Virus record (IMG/VR): IMGVR_UViG_2684622926_000002
Span: 1 to 64,000 of that record
Source: a virus
Taxonomy: Duplodnaviria; Caudoviricetes
DNA length: 64,000 nt
Strand: one strand, 5' to 3'
The first letter of the stretch is position 1. Each line of letters opens with the position of its first letter. The translations under genes and the position numbers were made by a program. Under the pieces are notes generated by a model that was given only the letters and a program-made list of their open reading frames with translations, searched no databases and was not told where the DNA came from. Positions 25,910-63,854 of this stretch are shown here, one piece after another.

Positions 25910-26248
25910 CTATTTGTACTTATTTTCACAAATAATTACACCTGATAATCCTACTGATGAATTTATATAAAAAATTAATAAATCAGTATTTATATAATTT
26001 TTTAAAAAAGGATAATCTTCCATTATGGGAACTGGCAGTTCATTTGTTTTATAACTATTGATTTCAAATATAACATTTTGATCTGAAAAGAAATTAAATT
26101 CAAACTGAAGAATATTTGAAAAAATAATCTCTTGAGAGTTATCACAAAGTAATTTTAAAATATTTTGGCTTTTATCATGATAAATACCATTAATACTTAT
26201 ATCATGATAATCTTTATACACATGTAAATTTTCCATTTTTTGCATCAT
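25910..26248 (-). CDS. Putative immunity protein
   Basis: Overlaps the 3' end of the toxin at 26214..26567. Confidence 0.6.
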   Translation of the reverse strand: MMQKMENLHVYKDYHDISINGIYHDKSQNILKLLCDNSQEIIFSNILQFEFNFFSDQNVIFEINSYKTNELPVPIMEDYPFLKNYINTDLLIFYINSSVGLSGVIICENKYK

Positions 26249-45314: not shown

Positions 45315-46019
45315 CTAGGATAATTTTGCAGCAGTAGGAAAACCACCAAATGGTAGAATACCGTATTGGCCATGACGAAGTTTACAACCAGTTAAACATC
45401 GGCTACATTTATCTTTAGTGATGTCGTTTGTTGGTTTGTCGAACTCATCCGCTACTGCACCGCCTGTATAACCACATTCCGACGAGCGATATATCCAATT
45501 GCAAGTGTTAGCAACAATGACACGAGCCGGAATTAATGCACCGTCGGACTCGCATGGCAATGCTAATTCAAATGTAACAACCATTGAATTTTGTTGTTTT
45601 ACCTGCTCAATCACATAATTTGAGATAATTTCGCAAAACGGATCGGCATATTGATTACCGTTCTCAAAATTCACCGCATCTAGATATTTGACAGGCACTT
45701 CATGACGGGTGACAATTGCACCAAGTAAACCGTCAAAATCAGCAATTAGACCATTGATAAAGCCCATCGCATTACTAACACTCATTGTTGGACGGTTACT
45801 CACACCCTGTCCATTCTTTTCAAAACCTTCAACTTTTATGGGATAAGGTTCATAGATATTACATTGCCACGTTATCGGTCGTCTCAGCTCATTTAATCCA
45901 TTGTGAAATCGAAATATAGTTTTGTTGCCGACAATTTTAGTTAAATCAACTTCATACAAATCAACAATCGCATCTTGTGCTATTTTAGTTATATCGAGTA
46001 GCATTTTTTGCGGTATCAT
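45315..46019 (-). CDS. Minor tail protein L
   Basis: YEPYPI.V.GFE; CNW.YR..ECGY.G; DKCS.CL.GC..R; LPFGGF. Confidence 0.95.
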   Translation of the reverse strand: MIPQKMLLDITKIAQDAIVDLYEVDLTKIVGNKTIFRFHNGLNELRRPITWQCNIYEPYPIKVEGFEKNGQGVSNRPTMSVSNAMGFINGLIADFDGLLGAIVTRHEVPVKYLDAVNFENGNQYADPFCEIISNYVIEQVKQQNSMVVTFELALPCESDGALIPARVIVANTCNWIYRSSECGYTGGAVADEFDKPTNDITKDKCSRCLTGCKLRHGQYGILPFGGFPTAAKLS

Positions 46020-46345
46020 ACTACAACCTCCTCAAATGTTGCAGTAATTGATATTACTGTATGTTTAACATTTGTTGACCATGATGGACATTTAACTGTG
46101 ATTAATCGATTGGTGTTTGGCTCTCGCCATTTGAAGGCATGAACACCACCATGCCGCGTTAGAAAGTCATCAATCATAGCAGCATCATCTCTAGGAACAT
46201 TCAAACTTACGTCATATAAACGTAGATCGTTATTAATCCCATCTCTAACGCGTTGTTCGTAACCATCACCAAATTTGATAAGTTTGACCCTTGGTTCAGC
46301 TTTAACTGTTAAACCTGGAGCAAGCTCCCAACTGAATGTTTCCAT
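46016..46345 (-). CDS. Minor tail protein M
   Basis: METFSW...FGDGYEQR..GIN...FL..HGG..AF.W. Confidence 0.92.
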   Translation of the reverse strand: METFSWELAPGLTVKAEPRVKLIKFGDGYEQRVRDGINNDLRLYDVSLNVPRDDAAMIDDFLTRHGGVHAFKWREPNTNRLITVKCPSWSTNVKHTVISITATFEEVVV

Positions 46346-46361
46346 ATTTTCTCCAGACAAT

Positions 46362-46382
46362 AAAAAACCGCCAACAGGCGGT
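46362..46382 (-). terminator. Rho-independent terminator (ACCGCC-TGTT-GGCGGT plus U-tract)
   Basis: aaaaaaccgccaacaggcggt on the plus strand. Analogous hairpins at ~53182, ~54934 and ~59863. Confidence 0.7.
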
Positions 46383-46502
46383 ATGTGTGAATTTTAATTG
46401 TGAATTTTTAGTTACCTATACGGTATAAATCAATGATGTATTGTCGTCCTCTAGATTTCTAAACGACCTACACGGCAATGCTCCCCTCTAGGTACAACTT
46501 TA

Positions 46503-47009
46503 CTAGTTAAATTTTTTTATTTTCTCTAACAACGTTTCAAGTTCATTTACGTTTTTATTTACTAGGGTTTCCATGATTGCAATGGGTAATTTTGAAATAC
46601 CCTCACTATGCGCCATCACATAGTCAGCAGTTACACTCATTATGTCATCTTGAGCGACTAAAACTAAACACACACCCGCAATTCTGGTTTCAGAGTGAAT
46701 ATTCTTGATATTTATTTCACCAGTCATGTCAATTATTGTTGCATAACTTTTGAACGCATCATCACCAAGGTTTTTATATTTTTCTATTAATTTGTATTTG
46801 TTTATATCTTCACGTGAAATTTTCCCGATAGTACTTTGGCTATTATCCTTTATGATTAATCCATTCATTTGTTGTGTGAAATAATAAGGGGTTGACTTGC
46901 ATATGTCAGCTAAATATGTAGATATATCATTTTCGGTTAAATTCGAATTTGCGCTAACTAGAAAAGGGAAAAACAATAAACAAAACAAAATCCTTTTCAT
47001 ACTTTCCAT
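46503..47009 (-). CDS. Moron: exported protein of unknown function
   Basis: Signal peptide MKRILFCLLFFPFLVSANS; inserted between the TMP and M genes. Confidence 0.75.
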   Translation of the reverse strand: MESMKRILFCLLFFPFLVSANSNLTENDISTYLADICKSTPYYFTQQMNGLIIKDNSQSTIGKISREDINKYKLIEKYKNLGDDAFKSYATIIDMTGEINIKNIHSETRIAGVCLVLVAQDDIMSVTADYVMAHSEGISKLPIAIMETLVNKNVNELETLLEKIKKFN

Positions 47010-47107
47010 CCTAATGTGTTCATTTTTTAAATGGTATGAAATTTCGACAGTTAAATCAATAAACTTTTAGTAATTCTTCTATTCGTTATTCTTTTTGTAA
47101 CTGTGCA

Positions 47108-47502
47108 CCTATTATCCCAGTACATAAAGGGTACACTAATAAACGCCGATTAGCTCCCTCATAAAAACCGGTTTATCCCTGTGTGTACAGGGAACACCTT
47201 TTCTAAAAATCGAATAATGTCATCTTTGTCGGTTTATCCCTGTGTATACAGGGAACACAAAACCATTTCTAATAAGATATTCGATTGTCTCGGTTTATCC
47301 CTGTGTATACAGGGAACACACTCTGGGGATGTGGGTTGATAAAAACTCGAACGGTTTATCCCTGTGTATACAGGGAACACATTAGTATTCTCATGGTTTG
47401 TGATACCTCTGCCGGTTTATCCCTGTGTATACAGGGAACACCTAGAGCTCCCATTTGAAATACTGATAAAACACGGTTTATCCCTGTGTATACAGGGAAC
47501 AC
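47108..47502 (-). CRISPR. Type I-E CRISPR array: 6 repeats plus 1 degenerate trailer repeat, 6 spacers of 32 bp
   Basis: Repeat GTGTTCCCTGTATACACAGGGATAAACCG (minus strand) at 47169, 47230, 47291, 47352, 47413 and 47474, with a 61-bp period; trailer copy at 47108 is 21/29 identical. Confidence 0.97.
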
Positions 47503-47620
47503 TTATTATAACTTATTGTTTATTAGTTAAAATACTAAGCGATAAATTTCCACCAACTTTTTTACTGTTTTTTTGCATGATTTTATTGAGATGTTTTTAG
47601 TGATTTATTATTAGCAAAAT
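47503..47620 (-). promoter_or_regulatory. CRISPR leader
   Basis: AT-rich, opposite the degenerate end; minus strand AAAAAAGTTGGTGGAAATTT...AAACAATAAGTTATAATAA resembles enterobacterial I-E leaders. Confidence 0.75.
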
Positions 47621-47721
47621 GACTCTATTTTTTAGGTTATTTGCTTATGTAACTTGGCTATAAGCGGGTATCTGATCAAGTAAGCGATTTGACGAACCAC
47701 ATTTGCACGCCCTGTAATTCT

Positions 47722-47847
47722 TTAATGGTGACATTTTAACGCTGACGATTCTATTTTTTCTCGCAAATCATTCAACGGATTGATAGCAGTGGCTAATGTT
47801 TGTTTACAAATACTAAACAACTGTAACTCAATAGGGTCAAAATTCAT
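47722..47847 (-). CDS. Small ORF (41 aa) between the solitary repeat and the leader
   Basis: MNFDPIELQLFSICKQTLATAINPLNDLREKIESSALKCHH*, with AGAG before the ATG. Confidence 0.3.
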   Translation of the reverse strand: MNFDPIELQLFSICKQTLATAINPLNDLREKIESSALKCHH

Positions 47848-47856
47848 CTCTATTAT

Positions 47857-47885
47857 TGATTAATCCCAGTGAATACAGGCAACAC
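47857..47885 (-). repeat. Solitary degenerate CRISPR repeat
   Basis: GTGTTGCCTGTATTCACTGGGATTAATCA is 23/29 identical to the array repeat, in the same orientation but out of register with it. Confidence 0.7.
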
Positions 47886-48067
47886 TGTTTTACGCCACTC
47901 GTCGCATCATAACTACGCCTTAAATTACTCAAAAGGAGATCTGGAGCACAAAACTGTAACGAGATAGCGAACGTATTCTCTCATATGGGTATTGTGTTAG
48001 ACGCATTCCCGATCTTATGATCGGGAAATAAAAGTTGGAGATCTACAATTAATTTAGTTGGTTATAT

Positions 48068-48631
48068 TTATCGTTTATACTCAAACTCTATATTCATTAA
48101 GGTTTTTATCTTGTCTATTAACGAATATTTTATCCCATGTTTATTCAATGTTAATTCAGCATAAATATAATCCAAGCTATCTTTTTTGTAATTATGTCCA
48201 TCAATATCTATTTCTCCAATTTCATCAACTCTTGGTTCACGAGTGTTGTCAATATAATATTCGCATGAAGAATAACCGACTAAATCAACACCCATTCGGT
48301 TTTTGGATGAAAATTTAACCAAAGCAGTTGTGTTATAGAAATTTTTGGGATCATTATACTTTTCTTTTAATGATGAATATATTCGATTTCTTGAAAAGTA
48401 ATTATCAATTCTATCTTGGCTCCAGTTTTTCTTACTAGTCAAGGATAATTCTAGAATTTTATACGACGATGGCGCCACCATACGTTCTTTAGTTGCAAAG
48501 GAACATCTTTGCTTCAAGTCATATAAAAAAACATCATCATAGCTAACACTTTCATGTACATATATTAAAAATGTTGATACTAATGTACCTACAACCAAAA
48601 TTGATATGATAAACCATTTCATTCCATTCAT
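48068..48631 (-). CDS. Moron: membrane-anchored protein of unknown function
   Basis: N-terminal TM segment (WFIISILVVGTLVSTFLIY); C...KERMVAPSSYK...FSSKNRMG motif. Confidence 0.75.
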   Translation of the reverse strand: MNGMKWFIISILVVGTLVSTFLIYVHESVSYDDVFLYDLKQRCSFATKERMVAPSSYKILELSLTSKKNWSQDRIDNYFSRNRIYSSLKEKYNDPKNFYNTTALVKFSSKNRMGVDLVGYSSCEYYIDNTREPRVDEIGEIDIDGHNYKKDSLDYIYAELTLNKHGIKYSLIDKIKTLMNIEFEYKR

Positions 48632-48680
48632 CCTTATGTCACTAATATATAATGAATGGTATGAAATTTTAGTTATTAAA

Positions 48681-51600
48681 TCAACGACGATTTAATTTAC
48701 CACCAGGTCGCATTTGTTCGTCTAGTATTGATAACACTGATTGTTTTATCATTATACCGATTTCTTTGCCGTCTTCCTCGCTAATATCACCTCCGCCAAC
48801 ATTGACTGGTACATTTACAGTAATACTGCCGCCAGATGATTTAGATGCATCAAGGAAATTTTTTAAATCAGCATTTGTGCGCGCATCAACAACTCTCTCG
48901 CCTTTATCGAGTAACCAAGTTCCTTCGCGAGGAATACTATCGATACCACTATGCGCCATACCTGAAATGGTTTGAGCTGCAATCAATCCGACTGAAGCAT
49001 AACCTAATCCTCTGATCCAACTTGCAGCGGAAATACCAAAAATAGGGCCAAGTTCAAGCGCTTTTGATGCTGCAACTTCTGTACTAATAATAGCTTGAGC
49101 AATAGCAGAAGCCTTACTAGCTAAAAACATCACTTTATATGCAGCTGATGATTCACCAGCTGTTTGTTTGAACATATCAGCAATTGAACCAGTTAGTGTT
49201 GAAAATGTACCTAACGCCGCCATTGTATATACAGATTGCAACTCTTGTTGCTTATTCTGCATAGTTTCCTCGATGCTCAAAACTGCGTCAGCATATTCTT
49301 GATGATTTATTAACTTAGCATTTAGCAAATCAGTTTGAATTGCTAACTGTTGTTGCTGCCAATCTTTGAGGTTTTTTTCATCTTCAGCAACTTTGATTAG
49401 CTCACTACCTGGTCCATTATAAGAATTTTGAATACTTAACGTAGGCGCTGATTGAACCATTTTTTGATTCATTTTTTTAAGCAACTCTTCACGTTCTTGC
49501 AAGGAAACGTTACTTTTTTCAAGAACTGACAGATTTTGTTTGTAACTATCAAATTGTTGTTCGGTAGGACTACGCATTGAATCAAGAATAGATTTGTATT
49601 CTTTTTGGGCATTAAGTTGATCAATCTCAATGGCTTTATTTTCTAAAGCTTTTTTTTGCTCACCAGATAATACTTTTAATTCACCCTCTGCTAATTGGCG
49701 TCGGATTTTTTGAAGTTCAGTGATATCTTTATAGGCATTAATTTGATCGTTAAGTTTTCCAAGTTGGGATTGATAAAGATTAGTTGGATTTTTATCCAAA
49801 CTACTACGCTTTAGCTTCTCTTGTTCTTGATAAGACTTTCGTAACTTCTCAATGTACTCTTTCAATTTTTCAGCTAATTCATCTGACATTTCTGCTGATA
49901 GTTCCTGATTGGTCACTAAAGCAATAAGGTCTTCTGAATGTGCCAATGCTGCATTACCCGCTGCTTTTTGTAAACCGGCTAATATGTAAACCTGTTCCGC
50001 GGATAATCCTGTTTTTTGACTGTTTGTTTCTAGATCTTGGTTTAATATACGAAGTTGGTAACCGAGGTTTGGAAAATCTGCTACGTCAAGCTTTTTAAGA
50101 CCTCCAGCCGTTTCCTCTGACGCTTTTTTAGTGGCATCTATCTTTATTTTGGTTTCTGCTAGTGCTGCTATATTTTGCAATAACGAGCCTGTTATTGTGT
50201 TAAGAAGGTTTGTGAACTGTTCTCCACCACCCGTTGCATTAATTAAACTTATACCTGCTTCATTAATTCCCTCTCCGAACTCTTTTGAGGTAATTTCCCC
50301 CTCTATAACTTTATTTTTTAACACCTCAATTTGATTAATATATTTAGCTATTGCATTTTCATTTTCTGGCGAGATGTACGGTGAAAAACTTGAATAATCA
50401 AATGACGGTATTAGCTCTGTTAATTTGTCAGTTAATATTTTTTTAATTTCTGATACGTCGCTATTAACAGCTTTTACATTGACTTTAATTTCCGCGTCAA
50501 GTCCTGCTCTAATGTTACCTTGACGTGCTTTATCAAGTTCTTTGTATTTTGCAATCAATTGATCAACAGGTAATTGTAGCTCTTCGATTGGTTTTTTAGC
50601 ACTATTCGCGCCATCTCTCATTGAGAAAAAAGCTGTCCCAACAGCTATGGCTGTCATCGCTAATCCTAATGGGCCACCAAGTACTCCTAACAAGGTACTA
50701 CCGGCACGAGTTAAAATAGTCATTGCGCTACTTGACAACTTAAGTCTCTCATTTGCTGCCCTAAGACCATTTTTAGCCTGCGTTTCCCTTTCAGTTAGAG
50801 CAATTTCTTGAGCTTCAAGTGCTAAGACAGCTCTTCGTACATATATGCTAGAACTAATACCGGAAATATTTTGCAATCTAGCAATTGCCGCCTGTTTGGT
50901 GCTTGCAATAGATTGTTTTTCAACTGCTATTTTTTGCAGCTCAGACTCAGCAAGATGTTTTTGAGCTAATGCTAGATTTCTGGTTTTATTAATTTGATCT
51001 ACTATTTGAACTGAAACTTTTTTTAATGATGTATATGCACCATTTAGATAATTGCTAAATTTGGCCGATACAACTGCTGCTCCAGCAACGGAAACTAATC
51101 CAATATTATCAGCTAAAATTTTTAAAGCCTTCGATATATTATTAGTTAATCCAAGACTATTATTTAATTCGTTGACTAATTGTCCAAAATCATTAGATAT
51201 TGCATTAAAGCCACCTTGAAGCGTATCACCCATGGCATCTGCCATTTTACCCGTTTTATCTTTGGCGTTAATCATCGCATCAGAAAGTTGACGCATTGAA
51301 ATTTCACCAGACATACCGAGTTGGATAATGGTAGCTTCAGATTCTCCCATGGAGTCAGATAATGCAGTAGCAACATTAGATGTTGATGACAATATTGTTT
51401 TAAAATCATCACCGCTTACTTTACCCGTAAGCAGTGATTCATTAATTGCTTTTATACTTGTCGATACGTCAGTTGCTGATGTCGCATTTATTTTATAACT
51501 ATTTGACATCGCCTCGATAAAATCGACCGTTTCATTAGTACTGTAACCTAAATCAGACATTGATGAAGCAGTCGCAATATATAACTTTTGGGAATCTGAA

Positions 51601-51989
51601 ATCGCTTTACCATTTCTGTTACTTATTGCAAGTAACCTGTCTTGAACTAATTGATAATCATCAGCAGATCCACCAACTGAATCTATTGCCATTTTGACGC
51701 GATTGGCCATTTGCCCATAGTCATCGGCCATTTTCAAAATACCAGTAATTGAAAAATCAACTCCAAGTGTTTTGGTCATCTCGGAGGCTGAAATTTTTAA
51801 CTTACTTAAATGCGCATTGATTGCTTGAATTGATTTCTTATTGTTAGCAATGTGTTGATCAAAACGCCGTGAATATTTCTCCATTGTTTTGTAATAATCA
51901 TTACCAAGACGGGTTGCTCTTTTAATTTCTCGTTGATACGATTCTGAATTTGCACTGAGTCGTATCACCAATTCTCGCGGTATAGCCAT
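48681..51989 (-). CDS. Tape measure protein
   Basis: About 1100 aa, MAIPRELVIRLSANS start, helical tape-measure domain, ends GMAHSGIDSIPREGTWLLDKGERV...RPGG.L. Confidence 0.95.
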   Translation of the reverse strand: MAIPRELVIRLSANSESYQREIKRATRLGNDYYKTMEKYSRRFDQHIANNKKSIQAINAHLSKLKISASEMTKTLGVDFSITGILKMADDYGQMANRVKMAIDSVGGSADDYQLVQDRLLAISNRNGKAISDSQKLYIATASSMSDLGYSTNETVDFIEAMSNSYKINATSATDVSTSIKAINESLLTGKVSGDDFKTILSSTSNVATALSDSMGESEATIIQLGMSGEISMRQLSDAMINAKDKTGKMADAMGDTLQGGFNAISNDFGQLVNELNNSLGLTNNISKALKILADNIGLVSVAGAAVVSAKFSNYLNGAYTSLKKVSVQIVDQINKTRNLALAQKHLAESELQKIAVEKQSIASTKQAAIARLQNISGISSSIYVRRAVLALEAQEIALTERETQAKNGLRAANERLKLSSSAMTILTRAGSTLLGVLGGPLGLAMTAIAVGTAFFSMRDGANSAKKPIEELQLPVDQLIAKYKELDKARQGNIRAGLDAEIKVNVKAVNSDVSEIKKILTDKLTELIPSFDYSSFSPYISPENENAIAKYINQIEVLKNKVIEGEITSKEFGEGINEAGISLINATGGGEQFTNLLNTITGSLLQNIAALAETKIKIDATKKASEETAGGLKKLDVADFPNLGYQLRILNQDLETNSQKTGLSAEQVYILAGLQKAAGNAALAHSEDLIALVTNQELSAEMSDELAEKLKEYIEKLRKSYQEQEKLKRSSLDKNPTNLYQSQLGKLNDQINAYKDITELQKIRRQLAEGELKVLSGEQKKALENKAIEIDQLNAQKEYKSILDSMRSPTEQQFDSYKQNLSVLEKSNVSLQEREELLKKMNQKMVQSAPTLSIQNSYNGPGSELIKVAEDEKNLKDWQQQQLAIQTDLLNAKLINHQEYADAVLSIEETMQNKQQELQSVYTMAALGTFSTLTGSIADMFKQTAGESSAAYKVMFLASKASAIAQAIISTEVAASKALELGPIFGISAASWIRGLGYASVGLIAAQTISGMAHSGIDSIPREGTWLLDKGERVVDARTNADLKNFLDASKSSGGSITVNVPVNVGGGDISEEDGKEIGIMIKQSVLSILDEQMRPGGKLNRR

Positions 51990-51990
51990 A

Positions 51991-52290
51991 TTATTTTCCA
52001 ATTAAGTTAGATAATGCGTCGAATAAAGTGACTGGTTGCTTTTTCTCTTCTCTAAATTTAATTAAACAGTCGTCGAAAGAGACTTTTCCACCTTGTGAGC
52101 GGTATATAGATGAAGAAATTTGAGCTGCATGCCAGTCATTTCGCTCGTCACTGATAGGATTTAATTTATCAAATGCGACCCAGTAGTAAAATTCACTAGC
52201 TGAAAGTGATTGCTCAAGTTCAGCTAGTGTTTTACCAAGCCTTAATGCTAGCTTTAATTTAAAGAAAAGCTCTGGTTCATTTTCTACTTT
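51991..52290 (-). CDS. Tail assembly chaperone T (the -1 frameshift extension of G)
   Basis: Open frame KVENEPELFFKLKLALRLGKTLAELEQSLSASEFYYWVAFDKLNPISDERND...; slippery A AAA AAG immediately before the G stop. Confidence 0.85.
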   Translation of the reverse strand, partial: KVENEPELFFKLKLALRLGKTLAELEQSLSASEFYYWVAFDKLNPISDERNDWHAAQISSSIYRSQGGKVSFDDCLIKFREEKKQPVTLFDALSNLIGK

Positions 52291-52687: not shown

Positions 52688-53158
52688 TTAATTAGCTGGA
52701 GTCGGTTCATTAAACACAAATGAGCCTTTTACTTTGAATGCGAATGAACCAGTTAAAATGCCATTCTTTTCACCTTTAAACTCAAAATTGGTAACACGCG
52801 CAATCCAGTCAACAGAACTACCATCCTCATGTTGGATTTTAAATGCGTAATTATTACCTGACTCATAGGATTCTCTTAAAGCTTTTTGACCATCATTTGC
52901 AATAACAAAATTAACGTTCATTGATACAGTTGGTTCAGCCGGTAATCCACTAATGGTTTCTTTGGTACGAGATGAAAGTGTTGAGACATCAATCTCTTCA
53001 CCTTCTGGTGATGTCATGGAATAGTCGGTTACCGTACACTCTAAACTTAATTTTGGGGTGGTATCAGTGATGAATTTTGTTGAAGGATCTTTACTAATAA
53101 ATACACCGATATCTCTAGTTTTGGTATATTCGCTTTGTGATTTTTGTACTTCAGTCAT
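52688..53158 (-). CDS. Major tail tube protein
   Basis: EEIDVSTL.S..KE.ISGL..EPT.S...NF....GQ.AL......F.I. Confidence 0.88.
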   Translation of the reverse strand: MTEVQKSQSEYTKTRDIGVFISKDPSTKFITDTTPKLSLECTVTDYSMTSPEGEEIDVSTLSSRTKETISGLPAEPTVSMNVNFVIANDGQKALRESYESGNNYAFKIQHEDGSSVDWIARVTNFEFKGEKNGILTGSFAFKVKGSFVFNEPTPAN

Positions 53159-53445: not shown

Positions 53446-53703
53446 TTAATTGATTACGCTAATTATTTTTTTTATTGCCCTTTTATCTTGATTGCACATC
53501 TCAATAACATTCAAGAGATGCTCGTTATAGCTAACACTATCGCCGAATGTCATTTTTTGTGGTGGTAAATTTGCTATGCAATCACTGAGCAGATTTGCTG
53601 GAATTGGCTGATTCACGTAAACTTTTCGCTCGGTTGTACAGGCTACCAGAGATAGACATAGGCACGAACTGATTAGCGCAATCATTATATTTAAGTTGTT
53701 CAT
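53446..53703 (-). CDS. Rz1-like outer-membrane spanin (lipoprotein)
   Basis: Lipobox LSLVAC, P.PANLL..C, CN.DK.AI; overlaps the i-spanin gene. Confidence 0.8.
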   Translation of the reverse strand: MNNLNIMIALISSCLCLSLVACTTERKVYVNQPIPANLLSDCIANLPPQKMTFGDSVSYNEHLLNVIEMCNQDKRAIKKIISVIN

Positions 53704-53950
53704 TGATCTGCTCCTGACGTGAAATAGATTGATTTTCTAGCTCACGTTTTGATTGTTCGTTAGCGGCAATAATCTGATTATTTCTCTCGATAGTTTGCTG
53801 TAATTGTTGCATCTGTGAAGATAATTCAGTCATTTTCTGTTTTGCTGTTTGTTCATCTTCAAAACATTGATAAGCAAAATAAATGCTAAAAATAACAATA
53901 ATTAATAATATTATCGGAGACAGCTTATAAAGTAGTTTTAATTTATCCAT
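53582..53950 (-). CDS. Rz-like inner-membrane spanin
   Basis: N-terminal TM segment, coiled coil, CA...VP. Confidence 0.8.
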   Translation of the reverse strand: MDKLKLLYKLSPIILLIIVIFSIYFAYQCFEDEQTAKQKMTELSSQMQQLQQTIERNNQIIAANEQSKRELENQSISRQEQINEQLKYNDCANQFVPMSISGSLYNRAKSLRESANSSKSAQ

Positions 53951-54390
53951 CAGACTAACCCATTGACGTAAACTGTTTTACCGCCCTGTTTAACCGCAGT
54001 TAACACGATTTGGCGGTTATTGCTCGGACTAAATCCAATATGTACCCATTGGTTGTGCTCCTGGATTAATTTGTCAAACTGCACACCGGCATCAATCAAA
54101 CGTTGGCAAATCTCTTTAGGCGTTCCGTATGAGCTATGAAAATCAACGGCAAGCCCTTTGGTGTGCGCGCTAGTTGGTGAACCGCCTACTTGAGTATTGA
54201 GTGCCGGACAACGATAGCCTGATGTGATAATAATCGGGAAACCTAAAACTTTTCTTACGCACTCCAATTTATTGGCAGTTAGCTTGATATTGGGCATTAA
54301 TTGAACTGGTACAGAATTGTTTATTTTGGCTCTCTCGCCTGTGGTTGAGCGGGTAAATTCCTCAAGCGTAAAATGTTCGGTTAGTTGCAT
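53950..54390 (-). CDS. Endolysin, peptidase M15A family
   Basis: HFTLEEF, SGYRC..LN..VGG...SAH..G.AVD, FD.LI.E...WVH. Confidence 0.92.
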   Translation of the reverse strand: MQLTEHFTLEEFTRSTTGERAKINNSVPVQLMPNIKLTANKLECVRKVLGFPIIITSGYRCPALNTQVGGSPTSAHTKGLAVDFHSSYGTPKEICQRLIDAGVQFDKLIQEHNQWVHIGFSPSNNRQIVLTAVKQGGKTVYVNGLV

Positions 54391-54698
54391 TAGTTATCTC
54401 CTTTGGCTTTTTTAATCAGTCTTTCTTCCAGCGCTTTAATCAGTGTTGCGCCCGACCAACCTGCTAACCCAGCTATACCGCCTGCTAGTTCAAAATCCCA
54501 GTTAAAATAACTAGCAGCAAGAACCACAAGAGAACCAGCAAAAGTTGATACACATATCTGACCTATCAACGTACCAACTCTGAATTTACCACCATTTATA
54601 ACATGATAAGAATAGCTTGCTAATGAACCGAGCGAAGTAATAATAAATAGGTATACAACAACCGTCCAGTTGACGTTGTTTGGGTCTTTTATTGGCAT
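54390..54698 (-). CDS. Holin
   Basis: 102 aa with 3 TM segments, directly upstream of the endolysin. Confidence 0.85.
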   Translation of the reverse strand: MPIKDPNNVNWTVVVYLFIITSLGSLASYSYHVINGGKFRVGTLIGQICVSTFAGSLVVLAASYFNWDFELAGGIAGLAGWSGATLIKALEERLIKKAKGDN

Positions 54699-55865
54699 GA
54701 TAAAATCTTTATGTTAGTTAATAGAAATGACAGCGTGCTAGCTAAGCATTGGTTGGTTGTGTGTGTCTAGCGTTGCTGTCGATGCTGTAGCTCTTCACTA
54801 AGGTATCTAGTTTTGACTATGTCAAAAATTAGTAAAAGTGATGAGAGAAACTTTATTTAAAATAGATAATTAGCGAAAATATAGTGTCTACCATGAATTA
54901 AAATTAAGGTTAATTGTCTATAAACAAGCATAAAAAAACCGCAATTAAGCGGTTAATCTAGCATTTTGAATTAGTTATTTTTCCCTAAAAAAATAATCAA
55001 TTACAAATTGTATCGTTAAGTTAGTTATAACTCTTTTATAATTAAGATTTTAAATGTAAACAAATTGATGCATTATCTTTTCTTTATTAGAGAGTCATAG
55101 AAAAAAAGTGCTAAAAATTCAAAAAATGCAGCATCGCCACTATAAAAGAGGTAGTGATAATCAGTTAAATTATTGAGCCTCTATTCCGAAAAATAGATAT
55201 AAAAGAACAGATTGATAACAAAATAAATCATCAAAAAAACAATTACATATTGTTAATCTTTTCATTTTATTTTTATTTAAAAATATATTCTCACCTTCAA
55301 AAGATAAGTACTTATCCCATCTCTTAAATTGATTATACGGTATTCAATATTTGAAAATATTACTCAACGCGAAAAAATAGAGCGCTAACTTTCAATATCT
55401 CGATTCAGTTAGATTTATTTGCTATATAATCGATAACTCTTTTATAGAATCTTAGACTAAATTTATATTAAATCTTTAGTTAAAATAATCCCTAACTGGA
55501 ATTATAAAGTTAACTAGATAATTTTTAGCATTATTTAAGTTTTACGAATACAGTTATAAAAATTATACAAAAGATGAGCAAGGTAATTTTTTAAGAAATC
55601 TATTTCATTAACAACTAAAAATAATTAAATTATTTTTGATTAAGCGTTTGAGCTTTATTATAAGTTAACTCACAATGATAACCATCAATAGAACGCTGAT
55701 AAGCTACTATCGACCTAATACTAGGACTTAAAGAGAAGTAAAATAACAGGTAAAATACGCATTTTAATTCTGCTACTTTGATAAGCTCGCCAATATTCAA
55801 TAGTAGAAATAAAATATAAATCATTGAATAAAATTAAAAAAAGATTGTATATTTAAAAAATCAAG

Positions 55866-56063
55866 GTGAATAGTATGGCGTTAACTAGAACTGAAATTAA
55901 TGAGCGTAGTAACGAAAAACGTGGTATAAAAAATAAAGCATTTAAATTAAATATAAACGATATAGCAATGATTAAACAAACTGCTATAGATTTAAATATG
56001 TCAGAAGCAAAACTAGTAGTAGAAGCTATTAAATTCTATAAAGACAATAAAAAAGCCTCATAA
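55866..56063 (+). CDS. Small ribbon-helix-helix/CopG-like protein; duplicate at 62711..62908
   Basis: MALTRTEINERSNEKRGIKNKAFKL...KLVVEAIKFY. Confidence 0.6.
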   Translation: MNSMALTRTEINERSNEKRGIKNKAFKLNINDIAMIKQTAIDLNMSEAKLVVEAIKFYKDNKKAS

Positions 56064-56276
56064 GAGGCTTTCTTGGTAATTCAATATTGAACGTTGTTCT
56101 TGTAGAGTGATTTCATTTAGATGTTTTCTTGGGTTACCACACATCCAACAAGAACAAGCTGCGGGTGTTACTACATGTCTTTTTAGAGCCTTTCTTGAAG
56201 TAGCACCATAAAAGTCATTCTTTCTATTATCTAAACATCGTTTAATCTGATGTCGTCTATATGCTCTTGTTCTCAT
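56058..56276 (-). CDS. Small phage protein with CSCWMCGNPRK motif; duplicate at 62903..63121
   Basis: 72 aa, located directly downstream of Q or its remnant. Confidence 0.65.
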   Translation of the reverse strand: MRTRAYRRHQIKRCLDNRKNDFYGATSRKALKRHVVTPAACSCWMCGNPRKHLNEITLQEQRSILNYQESLL

Positions 56277-56394
56277 ATTTTTCTAATTAACTAACAAGTT
56301 AGATAATAAAAAAGCTCTTTTTTAGAGCTTTATATACAACTATTCCATTCTGTGTGCTTTATACCACACCTCTCTTAAGAAATCAACTTTTTTA

Positions 56395-56738
56395 TAAAAA
56401 TTTATTTTTTAACATCTCTAATTCAATTCCGGATCTGCTTTTTATTGCGGCAAACTACCCTGTTAAAAAATCCTCACCACTTTTTTGAGTTTATCAATTG
56501 CATTCCAATTGGTTTTAAATTTTTTGGCAATATCAACAGTGGTAATGGTTTAACCATGTAGAGTTTCTCCTCTCTGATACCTCGGGCAATTTTTTAAAAA
56601 TTGGCAAATCATCAAAACCTTGCGCTTGTCTTTTCCTTCCGCTTTAACACAGCCAGCCACAGCTATATAGTCAGTAACCTCTTGTTTTTTTCACCCAATA
56701 ATAGAGTATCAAGGTATTATATATATCTTTGGATTGAG
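56395..56738 (-). pseudogene. 3' remnant of a Q antiterminator (duplicate of part of 63237..63854)
   Basis: Nucleotide match to ~63240-63587, with frameshifts. Confidence 0.85.
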
Positions 56739-56900
56739 GCATTTTCAGCGATAAGATAGTCAGATGTAGGCATCTGCATTGGTAAAATTTGAATTTTCGT
56801 GTACTTGTTAATGGCGTCGCCTACAAGATTAAAAATAAAAAACAACCAATTGATTAGTAGGGTTAAAAAATAAAATAAAAATACCGTAAAAAATACTGTT

Positions 56901-62211: not shown

Positions 62212-62229
62212 TTAATTATCTCCTTAATA

Positions 62230-62626
62230 GCCTTTTTAATTTGATTACACATTTCAATAACATTGAATAAATGCTCCTTGTATCTGATGCTATCGCCGAA
62301 CGTCATTTTTTGTGGCGGTAAATTTGCTATGCAATTACTGAGCAGATTTGCTGGAATTGGCTGATTCACGTAGACTTTTCACTTGGTTGTACAGGCTACC
62401 AGAGATAGACATAGGCACGAACTGACTAGCACAGTCATTATTTTTGAGTTGTTCTTGGATCTGCTCCTGACGTGAAATAGATTGATTTTCTAGCTCACGT
62501 TTTGATTGTTCGTAGCGGCAATAATCTGATTATTTCACTCGATAGTTTGCTGTAATTGTTGCATCTGTGGAGATAATTCAGTCATTTTCTGTTTTGCAGT
62601 TTGTTCATCTTCAAAACATTGATAAG
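62230..62626 (-). pseudogene. Spanin (Rz/Rz1) remnant, duplicate of ~53530-53872
   Basis: Nucleotide match to the spanin genes, with 5' truncation and a deletion. Confidence 0.85.
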
Positions 62627-62710
62627 CTCGCCGGCATTCTATAGTAGTTTAAATTTTAGGTAACCTATTAAATAACCTTAAAAAAATGATTGTAGATTTA
62701 AAAAATCAAG

Positions 62711-62908
62711 GTGAATAACATGGCACTAACAAGAGTTCAAATTAATCAAAAAAGTGACGAAAAGCGAGGAGTTAAAACAAAAGGTTTTAAATTAAATATA
62801 AACGATATAGCAATGATTAAACAAACTGCTATAGATTTAAATATGTCGGAAGCAAAGCTAGTAGTAGAAGCTATTAAGTTCTATAAAGACAATAAAAAAG
62901 CCTCATAA
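62711..62908 (+). CDS. Small RHH-like protein (duplicate of 55866..56063)
   Basis: Near-identical C-terminal two thirds. Confidence 0.6.
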   Translation: MNNMALTRVQINQKSDEKRGVKTKGFKLNINDIAMIKQTAIDLNMSEAKLVVEAIKFYKDNKKAS

Positions 62909-63121
62909 GAGGCCTTCTTGGTAATTCAATATTGAACGTTGTTCTTGTAGAGTGATTTCATTTAGATGTTTTCTTGGGTTACCACACATCCAACAAGAAC
63001 AAGCTGCGGGTGTTACTACATGCCTTTTTAGAGCCTTTCTTGAAGTAGCACCATAAAAGTCATTCTTTCTATTATCTAAACATCGTTTAATCTGATGTCG
63101 TCTATATGCTCTTGTTCTCAT
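62903..63121 (-). CDS. Small phage protein (duplicate of 56058..56276)
   Basis: One amino-acid difference from the other copy. Confidence 0.65.
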   Translation of the reverse strand: MRTRAYRRHQIKRCLDNRKNDFYGATSRKALKRHVVTPAACSCWMCGNPRKHLNEITLQEQRSILNYQEGLL

Positions 63122-63236
63122 ATTTTTCTAATTAACTAGCAAGTTAGATAATAAAAAAGCTCTTTTTCAGAGCTTTATATACAACTATTCCATTCTGTGT
63201 ACTTTATACCACACCTCTCTTAAGAAATCAATTTTT

Positions 63237-63854
63237 TTATAAAAATTTATTTTTCAACATCTCTAATTCAATCCCGGAACTGCTTTTTATTGCGGCAAAA
63301 TACCCTGTTAAAAAATCCTCACCACTTTTTTTCAGTTTATCAATTGCATTCCAATTGGTTTTAAATCTTTTGGCAATATCAACAATCGATAATGGTTTAA
63401 CCATGTAGAGTTTCTCCTCTCTGATACCTCGGGCAATTTTTTTAGAATTTGGCAAATCATGAAAACCTTGCGCTTGTCTTTTCCATTCCTCTTTAACACA
63501 GCCATCCACAGCTATATAGTCAGTAACCTCTTGTTTTTCACCCCAATAATAGAGTATCAAGGTATTATATATATCTTTGGATTGAGGTATGTTCAAAGAT
63601 AAGATAGCCAAAAGTGCATCGTTAATTAGCATTGCATCATTATCAGAACAGACTTCTTTAAGTTTTTTTGGCTGTGAATGGTAATATAATAGTGTATTTT
63701 GTTTTAAATAAAGGTTTTTTCTTGACCAATTGCCAAAACGCATACATACATCAGTAATATCATAATCAGCTTTAAATCTCACTTTTGCGATCGACTTATC
63801 CGCTGTTTTTGGTTTTTCATCTTCTTTATATTTATACTCTGTCACTATTTTCAC
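63237..63854 (-). CDS. Late-gene antitermination protein Q (lambdoid)
   Basis: DI.DV..RFGNWS...CSDNDAMLIND...LILYY...IA.RF.......GEDFL.GY; located at the head of the late operon. Confidence 0.7.
   Translation of the reverse strand: MKIVTEYKYKEDEKPKTADKSIAKVRFKADYDITDVCMRFGNWSRKNLYLKQNTLLYYHSQPKKLKEVCSDNDAMLINDALLAILSLNIPQSKDIYNTLILYYWGEKQEVTDYIAVDGCVKEEWKRQAQGFHDLPNSKKIARGIREEKLYMVKPLSIVDIAKRFKTNWNAIDKLKKSGEDFLTGYFAAIKSSSGIELEMLKNKFL

Follow-up and report, generated by a model that had tools for sequence, protein, structure and literature searches.

A type I-E CRISPR array within a phage tail gene cluster

The stretch of DNA analysed here (the window) consists of 64,000 nucleotides, positions 1 to 64,000 of the IMG/VR record IMGVR_UViG_2684622926_000002, assigned to the Caudoviricetes. 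Its host is Gilliamella, a bee-gut bacterium, whose genome (G000) has 3.54 Mb and a G+C content of 34.5%. Inside a cluster of lambda-like tail genes, in the gap between the genes for the tape-measure protein and for the minor tail protein gpM, the window carries a clustered regularly interspaced short palindromic repeat (CRISPR) array with its leader, two cargo open reading frames (ORFs) and two solitary repeats (Table 1). Downstream of gpM come the L, K, I and J genes, and upstream of the tape-measure gene those for the tube and the G/T chaperone; all were placed with Pfam, and all are on the minus strand.

The array has an exact 61-bp period. Five of its six repeats are identical, and the sixth, at 47169-47197, is a one-base variant. 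On the minus strand the repeat, GTGTTCCCTGTATACACAGGGATAAACCG, begins with GTGTTCCC, continues as a stem-loop and closes with the ATAAACCG handle. This canonical type I-E reading (GTGTTCCC...GGGATAAACCG) is oriented like the tail genes around it, and therefore puts the leader at the high-coordinate side, from 47503 onward, and the variant repeat at the trailer end. The repeat RNA is predicted to fold into a 7-bp stem with a tetraloop (-10.5 kcal/mol, z -3.2), and its hairpin architecture is that of the arrays adjacent to the host cas genes. An Rfam scan of 46000-49000 at E<=1 matched no CRISPR-DR family.

Within the leader, the repeat-proximal ~60 nt (47503-47562) form a conserved core that aligns with the leaders of the host arrays C6a and C6b, both adjacent to cas genes, and C10. 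Over its full length the leader is 80% identical to an array leader in the Gilliamella genome G014, and a scan of Joint Genome Institute (JGI) metagenome contigs for it returned no match.

The locus is a genuine CRISPR array of type I-E; it has a host-type leader and no cas genes. The initial annotation, made from the nucleotide sequence and its ORFs, had described a type I-E array with uniform 32-bp spacers, near-perfect repeats and a leader, placed between the tape-measure and M genes, co-oriented with the late genes and lacking a cas gene in the window. All of this agrees with the present analysis, in which the assignment to type I-E follows from the 61-bp unit, the repeat signature and the match to the repeats beside the host type I-E cas operon. 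The count of six spacers has to be corrected to five, and the repeat that had been called a trailer repeat lies upstream of the leader, where it is the relic of another array (see below).

Table 1. Features of the region between the tape-measure and gpM genes, from high to low coordinates.
Feature	Position	Strand	Basis or remark
Tape-measure protein gene, upstream boundary of the cargo slot	48681..52001	minus	Pfam TMP_3, E 1.2e-39
30-nt element, direct-repeat family D2 (80% identity)	47030..47059 and 48655-48684	minus	directly upstream of each cargo ORF
Cargo ORF, 187 aa, N-terminal membrane anchor	48068..48631	minus	matches phrog_20018 (unknown function)
Relic of a second array: trailer flank and solitary degenerate type I-E repeat	47625..47885	minus	78% identity to G004
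Array leader (~150 nt)	47503..47655	minus	alignment to host and G014 leaders
Type I-E CRISPR array, 6 repeats (29 bp) and 5 spacers (32 bp)	47169..47502	minus	repeat search, folding
Repeats	47169-47197, 47230-47258, 47291-47319, 47352-47380, 47413-47441, 47474-47502	minus	
Spacer sp1	47442-47473	minus	leader-end spacer
Spacer sp2	47381-47412	minus	second from leader
Spacer sp3	47320-47351	minus	third from leader
Spacer sp4	47259-47290	minus	fourth from leader
Spacer sp5	47198-47229	minus	trailer-end spacer, oldest
Cargo ORF, 168 aa, signal-peptide-like N-terminus	46503..47009	minus	ORF call, N-terminus
Solitary type I-F-like repeat	46456..46483	minus	24/28 identity to host type I-F repeat
Intrinsic-terminator-like hairpin and T-run	46367..46382	minus	immediately upstream of gpM start
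Minor tail protein gpM gene, downstream boundary of the cargo slot	46016..46360	minus	Pfam Phage_min_tail, E 9.6e-36

The host type I-E system

No Cse1, Cas1 or Cas3 homologue is encoded in the window, and those of G000 are confined to contigs C6 and C7. A complete type I-E set (cas3, cse1, cse2, cas7, cas5, cas6e, cas1 and cas2, all with full-length Pfam matches) is present on contig C6, flanked by two arrays of 18 and 66 repeats, and another type I-E array is found on contig C10. Compared with the repeat of the window, those of the cas-adjacent arrays carry three to six substitutions and that of the C10 array only one, with the stem kept by compensatory changes. The handle is conserved among the host type I-E arrays except for one base in the 66-repeat array (ATATACCG). 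The search for type I-E cas genes with the same repeat elsewhere in the genome, proposed along with the initial annotation, has thus led to a complete operon with near-identical repeats.

Several other features of these loci can be recorded here. On contig C6, a block of ABC-transporter genes separates cas3 from cse1, and cas3 is on the opposite strand. G000 contains about 14 CRISPR arrays in total, four of type I-E and about ten of type I-F, many of them short and dispersed, and a complete-looking type I-F cas locus is found on contig C7. The type I-E array on contig C10 (C10:126532-127654) has seven repeats, is flanked by two solitary type I-E-like repeats and one type I-F-like repeat, and adjoins an Rz1-like gene, an endolysin fragment and the chromosomal gene queH; it has the appearance of the final remains of a comparable prophage cargo. 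A seven-repeat type I-F array at C9:585325-585710 is inserted, in antisense orientation, between the tail-completion gene and the baseplate gene V of a P2-like cluster. In this cluster the replication gene gpA is followed by two ORFs and then by lysis genes, with no head genes apparent, and it may be an R-type tailocin-like element that carries a CRISPR array.

Spacer targets

Protospacers were searched for in 38 genomes of the genus, allowing up to three mismatches. They were found for two of the five spacers, sp2 and sp5, both in phage genes of other Gilliamella genomes and both directly preceded by 5'-AAG, the protospacer-adjacent motif (PAM) for which the initial annotation had advised looking. 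The match of sp5 is perfect (32/32, G006:C1:279489-279520) and falls in a head-tail adaptor gene (phrog_195) of a prophage of genome G006, beside major-head and portal-like genes. That of sp2 (29/32, G035:C6:464639-464670) falls in a gene of 356 codons of the head module (phrog_771), adjoining a head-decoration gene in genome G035, and two of its three mismatches are at third codon positions. Chance alone would, as a rough estimate, produce a 29/32 match about 1e-6 times in an amount of sequence of this size.

Both identified targets are head-module genes that are absent from the carrier element, and no homologue of either is present in G000. The targeted G035 prophage and the element of the window have a lysis cassette in common (82-85% amino acid identity). 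In addition, the cas-adjacent array C6b of the host holds three spacers against the same G035 prophage, again with AAG. Since the targets are phage genes preceded by AAG, and a chromosomal array is directed at the same prophage, the spacers of the window look like products of the type I-E adaptation machinery of this host, aimed at the same phages as its chromosomal arrays. A search of the host genome returned no self-target of any of the five spacers outside the array.

The same element in a sister genome

The element has a close counterpart in G006, an independent metagenome-assembled genome (MAG) of a closely related Gilliamella, where it is syntenic and occupies the same chromosomal place. 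Nucleotide identity is 96-99% from window position 26007 to beyond 73900, and the same two cargo ORFs and the same solitary type I-F-like repeat are present. The G006 array has 14 repeats and 13 spacers, none of them in common with G000, so that the comparison of leader-end spacers among strains, also suggested in the initial annotation, revealed a complete difference between two copies of one element. Searched against the G000 genome and the comparison loci, the 13 G006 spacers matched their own array only, and two of them, searched against the genomes of the genus, gave no protospacer.

The repeats of the G006 array are not uniform: the two on the trailer side have the G000-type handle (ATAAACCG), and the twelve on the leader side have a derived one (ATAGACCG). 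This gradient points to acquisition at the leader end within the element rather than to wholesale replacement of the array, because it is what is expected when a mutated leader-proximal repeat is copied at each insertion.

The sister genome also bears on another explanation, namely that a chromosomal CRISPR locus was mis-joined to a prophage contig during assembly. Short-read assemblies are often broken or wrongly joined at repeats, and the metagenome contigs indeed stop at the edges of the array. However, the same arrangement occurs in the independent MAG with both flanks at 96-99% identity, and contigs of three separate bee or insect gut sequencing runs extend from each flank into the outermost repeat. 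A chimeric assembly, named at the outset as a finding that would undo the interpretation, can for practical purposes be set aside.

The carrier element and its cargo

Upstream of the tail genes and on the same strand, Rz, endolysin and holin genes are found at 53582-54698, and farther upstream Q-like, DnaB-like and O-like genes; a divergent gene for a cI-like repressor also lies upstream of the tail cluster. The end of the Rz gene is at 53582 and the start of the tube gene at 53158. Within the interval between the lysis genes and the tube gene, ~290 bp, no ORF reaches the size that a terminase, portal or capsid protein would need, and every large ORF between Q and the holin gene has a tail-fibre or spike PHROG match. 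There is therefore no room for terminase, portal, capsid and connector genes. By this gene content the carrier, a lambdoid element that lacks a head, is not a transmissible phage but a defective prophage or, alternatively, a candidate F-type tailocin; in F-type tailocins, too, lambda-like tail genes (tube to fibre) come directly after a lysis cassette, and genes for the head and for packaging are missing.

The region between Q and the lysis genes contains duplicated segments, detected as cross-matches to G006 (55775-56759 with 62616-63607, and 53460-53875 with 62213-62627), and a second Q-like fragment near 56395-56763. This suggests that two prophage remnants have been fused upstream of the tail cluster.

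In the cargo slot, one of the two ORFs lies on either side of the array. The initial annotation had described them as envelope-protein morons: the ORFs themselves are real, but the envelope assignment goes no further than their N-termini, neither having a Pfam or PADLOC family. For the 187-aa ORF, Atlas yielded clusters of hypothetical proteins only; for the 168-aa ORF, PHROG gave no family either, and Atlas nothing usable. The 30-nt D2 element in front of each is possibly a common promoter or 5' untranslated region of the two. Within 46300-48750, no terminator-like site other than the hairpin in front of gpM was found. At 48006-48027, downstream of the 187-aa ORF, a perfect hairpin overlaps the single hit of the Rfam scan, a match to the family sRNA-Xcc1 (47930-48014, minus strand) which, at 26.7 bits against a gathering score of 53, was dismissed as a chance hit.

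Solitary repeats

In addition to the array, the slot contains a degenerate type I-E repeat at 47857-47885, the supposed trailer repeat mentioned above, which retains 23/29 identity (six mismatches). It has lost the hairpin, with a predicted folding energy of -1.5 kcal/mol (z +1.2), and no second repeat is found 61 nt from it. Together with its flank (47625-47885) it is 78% identical, over 277 nt, to the trailer flank and terminal degenerate repeat of an eight-repeat array in genome G004. Since the leader part of this intergenic piece matches the G014 leader, and the trailer part matches the G004 array, the piece is best described as two parts: the leader of this array and, behind it, the trailer flank with the last repeat, left over from an adjacent array that no longer exists. 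In the genus, short arrays in such tandem order are common.

A 41-codon ORF (47722-47846, minus strand) starts 9 nt after the solitary type I-E repeat. Its first ~30 codons are kept in the G004 trailer flank, where the frame then shifts; possibly it is what is left of a gene that formerly lay behind a chromosomal array.

The second solitary repeat is of type I-F and lies between the 168-aa ORF and the terminator-like hairpin. It folds weakly (-4.0 kcal/mol, z -0.5), and the type I-F mini-arrays of related elements occupy the same slot, so that it is most simply regarded as another relic. The possibility of a type I-F mini-array at this position was also considered and rejected: a second degenerate type I-F repeat beside the solitary one has only 17/28 identity, at a spacing of 52 nt and not 60.

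Isolated repeats on mobile elements have been treated in the literature (PMC6858448; PMC10120712), and they raise the question of whether the repeats of this element act as decoys or regulators, sequestering or redirecting the host Cas proteins in the manner of Racr-like RNA anti-CRISPRs or CreTA-like RNAs. The presence of type I-E-like and type I-F-like solitary repeats in one cargo, and of a small ORF just downstream of the type I-E one, would agree with this. However, Racr-type solitary repeats keep the Cas-binding hairpin outside an array, and the type I-E repeat does not; it and its 230-nt flank are homologous to the terminal repeat and trailer of the ordinary G004 array, in which the small ORF is frameshifted, and it has no partner one repeat unit away. 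The main array, for its part, has spacers with real phage targets and the host PAM. A decoy or regulatory function is for these reasons highly improbable.

A cargo hot spot in Gilliamella prophages

Related tail clusters were identified through gpM, and the distance between the tape-measure and gpM genes was compared among them. It ranges from 5 nt in Zophobihabitans (L041), through 465 nt in L035, 700 nt in G. mensalis (L039), 1.4 kb in L037, 2.3 kb in the window and 2.8 kb in G006, to 3.0 kb in G. bombicola (L042) and 4.9 kb in L038. In G. bombicola R-53248 and Gilliamella sp. Choc5-1, the slot contains an anti-repressor gene and a type I-F mini-array that has a leader and reads in the direction of the tail genes. 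By Pfam, a HigB/HigA-like pair is present there too in G. bombicola, and at the corresponding place Choc5-1 has ORFs of identical size (97 and 104 aa). In G. apis NO3 (L040 2153-4135), a Septu pair (PtuA, E 5.5e-148; PtuB, E 1.6e-84) stands beside a type I-F mini-array upstream of gpM.

A further slot is that of a head-bearing prophage in G035 (G035:C6:449719-453541, or L121 9720-13542), in which two type I-F arrays and one type I-E array lie between the tape-measure and minor tail genes, together with anti-repressor genes, an HNH gene and a toxin-antitoxin pair. The type I-F arrays in L042, L043 and G035 have two to three spacers. One spacer of the G035 type I-E array matches the slot anti-repressor gene of G. 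bombicola (30/32) and of Choc5-1 (29/32), in both cases after AAG, and a G035 type I-F spacer matches a slot ORF of Gilliamella sp. Lep-s35 (28/32) after CC. Between the tape-measure gene and the distal tail genes, to judge from these genomes, Gilliamella has a hot spot for cargo.

The orientation of these arrays is relevant to another explanation, in which the array is a device that couples CRISPR to tail induction, either through a burst of CRISPR RNAs (crRNAs) or through Cas6e cutting the late mRNA between the tape-measure and gpM genes and so modulating the tail-tip genes. The array of the window points the same way as the tail genes and is placed between genes that need co-expression, with the single terminator-like site only after the cargo, just before gpM; the same orientation relative to the tail genes is found for the arrays in L040, L042 and L043 and for the three in G035. 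Against this, the type I-F array in the P2-like cluster on contig C9 of G000 is antisense to its tail genes, and an array with its own conserved leader would be independent of late transcription. I consider such a coupling very unlikely.

A broader proposal can be put forward tentatively, as a possibility somewhat short of even odds: the position after the tape-measure gene would be a recurrent landing place for cas-less type I-E and I-F arrays on temperate siphophages and their head-less descendants, where the arrays, with working leaders, would grow in place through the host Cas1-Cas2 and take part in a network of mutual targeting among prophages. If so, arrays in head-less tail clusters could safely target the head genes of their intact relatives.

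Proposed function

The reading that I favor, with a probability of roughly three in four, is that the array provides ordinary type I-E immunity in trans, through the host machinery, having come in with a temperate phage and been retained in what remains of it after domestication. The array would be transcribed on the minus strand, from its own leader and, unavoidably, by late transcription crossing it on the way to the M-J genes. The host Cas6e would then cut the repeat hairpins to give 61-nt crRNAs, which would be loaded into the host Cascade and direct Cas3 to AAG-flanked targets in Gilliamella temperate phages, while the host Cas1-Cas2 would insert new spacers at the leader end. Most likely the array entered on a temperate siphophage, a setting in which such arrays serve to exclude one phage from the host of another; because the carrier has since lost its head genes, the array would now be one more memory bank of the host type I-E system. 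This also sorts the options offered in the initial annotation. A phage-borne array for competition against other phages may describe the origin of the array and the situation in intact relatives, and a domesticated orphan array fits the present genome best, given its head-less carrier.

A number of observations weigh against this reading. The junction between leader and repeat (47502/47503) lacks two nucleotides ('GA') that are present in G006 and in the three other type I-E arrays of the host; because a contig from an independent sequencing run has the same junction, gap-free, this is not an assembly error. The deletion may reduce spacer integration in this strain, and impaired integration would fit the five spacers found here against 13 in G006. 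A promoter scan gave 11 sites, compared with 12.5 expected from shuffled sequences, and no leader promoter above controls. Fourteen sequencing runs contained at least three quarters of the sampled words; the only one guessed to be RNA (X15) covered both cargo ORFs in part and also the distal leader, with no cover of the array, a result that is silent either way on crRNAs. Contigs from the runs break at the repeats, which makes the spacer order unreadable in those samples. Regarding the targets, the match of sp2 has a mismatch at spacer position 1, and interference against that G035 prophage variant may be weak. For sp1, sp3 and sp4 the genus genomes gave no protospacer, blastn of the array against GenBank phages gave chance-level matches only (E about 2), and an exact scan of IMG/VR matched none of the five spacers. 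Spacers without a known target are usual for CRISPR.

Some of these observations would also be accounted for if the array were a frozen relic, captured or built earlier, no longer expressed, processed or extended, and kept only for want of selection for its deletion. In such a case one would point to the altered leader-repeat junction, to the small number of spacers relative to G006, to the degraded, head-less carrier and to the decayed solitary repeats in the same cargo. However, five of the six repeats are still identical and the hairpin is intact, and sp5, the oldest spacer, still matches a present-day prophage at every position and with the correct PAM. The host genes for Cas6e and Cascade are intact as well, and since late transcription to the M-J genes must cross the array, some precursor crRNA would be hard to avoid if the cluster is expressed. 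A frozen relic is thus unlikely, and immunity in trans is retained as the preferred reading.

Relation to known systems

The type I-E system of E. coli K-12 has a 29-bp repeat, a 32-bp spacer and an AAG PAM. The array of the window resembles it in its 61-bp unit, in a repeat that starts with G(T/A)GTTCCC and ends with GGGATAAACCG, in the stem-loop followed by an 8-nt handle, in the AAG PAM and in an AT-rich leader. It differs in the sequence of the stem (CCCTGTA/ACAGGG) and in its location, at a genome distance of about 3 Mb from the cas genes, on another contig than these and inside a phage tail cluster.

The carrier has the same gene order as the F-type pyocin clusters of Pseudomonas aeruginosa, with the lysis cassette followed by the lambda-like tube, G/T, tape-measure, M, L, K, I, J and fibre genes, no head genes and a cI-like repressor upstream. 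To my knowledge, no CRISPR array is known inside a tailocin cluster, and a search of the open-access full-text literature gave no paper describing arrays in prophages of Gilliamella or inside tailocin clusters.

Virus-borne mini-CRISPR arrays are defined by one to two spacers (PMC6858448), and have been described for the archaeal viruses SPV1 and SPV2 (Medvedeva et al. 2019, PMC6858448) and for phages and prophages (Faure et al. 2019, as summarised in PMC7099407). In these sources, the mini-arrays of bacterial phages have no host-type leader and probably change by recombination (PMC6858448; PMC7099407). Like them, the array of the window is cas-less, is located on a (pro)viral genome, has repeats matching those of the host and carries spacers against other viruses of the same host, and close relatives of its carrier have an array at the same position with different spacers. 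As in SPV1 and SPV2 (PMC6858448), spacers of the G035 prophage match genes that adjoin the array slot of other elements. With five spacers here and 13 in G006, the arrays exceed the number by which mini-arrays are defined. The host-like leader is shared with the archaeal viruses and sets the array apart from bacterial phage mini-arrays, as far as these are covered by the two sources (PMC6858448; PMC7099407). Unlike the carriers of mini-arrays, the element studied here is head-less, and so is no superinfecting competitor itself.

Cas-less viral CRISPR arrays are thought to be weapons in conflicts between viruses. The case described here is a bacterial, prophage-derived element with a multi-spacer array and a host-type leader, whose spacers come from phages with the correct PAM, together with the complete turnover of spacers between near-identical elements and a repeat gradient that indicates canonical addition in place. 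The interest would be greater if the pattern of array-bearing tail clusters and mutual targeting holds throughout the genus, as this would provide a bacterial, culturable counterpart of the archaeal SPV1/SPV2 system. Gilliamella can be cultured, and the gut community to which it belongs is simple and well sampled, which makes it a suitable system for studying how arrays move, how they are extended and what becomes of them when a phage is domesticated. For the phage-host networks of the bee gut, it implies that the spacers of such arrays record the history of mobile elements as well as that of the host.

Besides the virus-borne mini-arrays, the closest known kind is that of the type I-B arrays which Clostridioides difficile has in its prophages (Hargreaves et al. 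2014, PMC4173771; Boudry et al. 2015, PMC4556805). Those arrays are likewise multi-spacer and cas-less, reside in prophages of a gut bacterium, need the cas operon of the host and target other phages of the same species. The Gilliamella arrays belong to a different phylum, and to types I-E and I-F rather than I-B. In Gilliamella, for which alone the position is stated here, they are found at one defined hot spot within the tail operon, in two CRISPR types and with one tailocin-like carrier.

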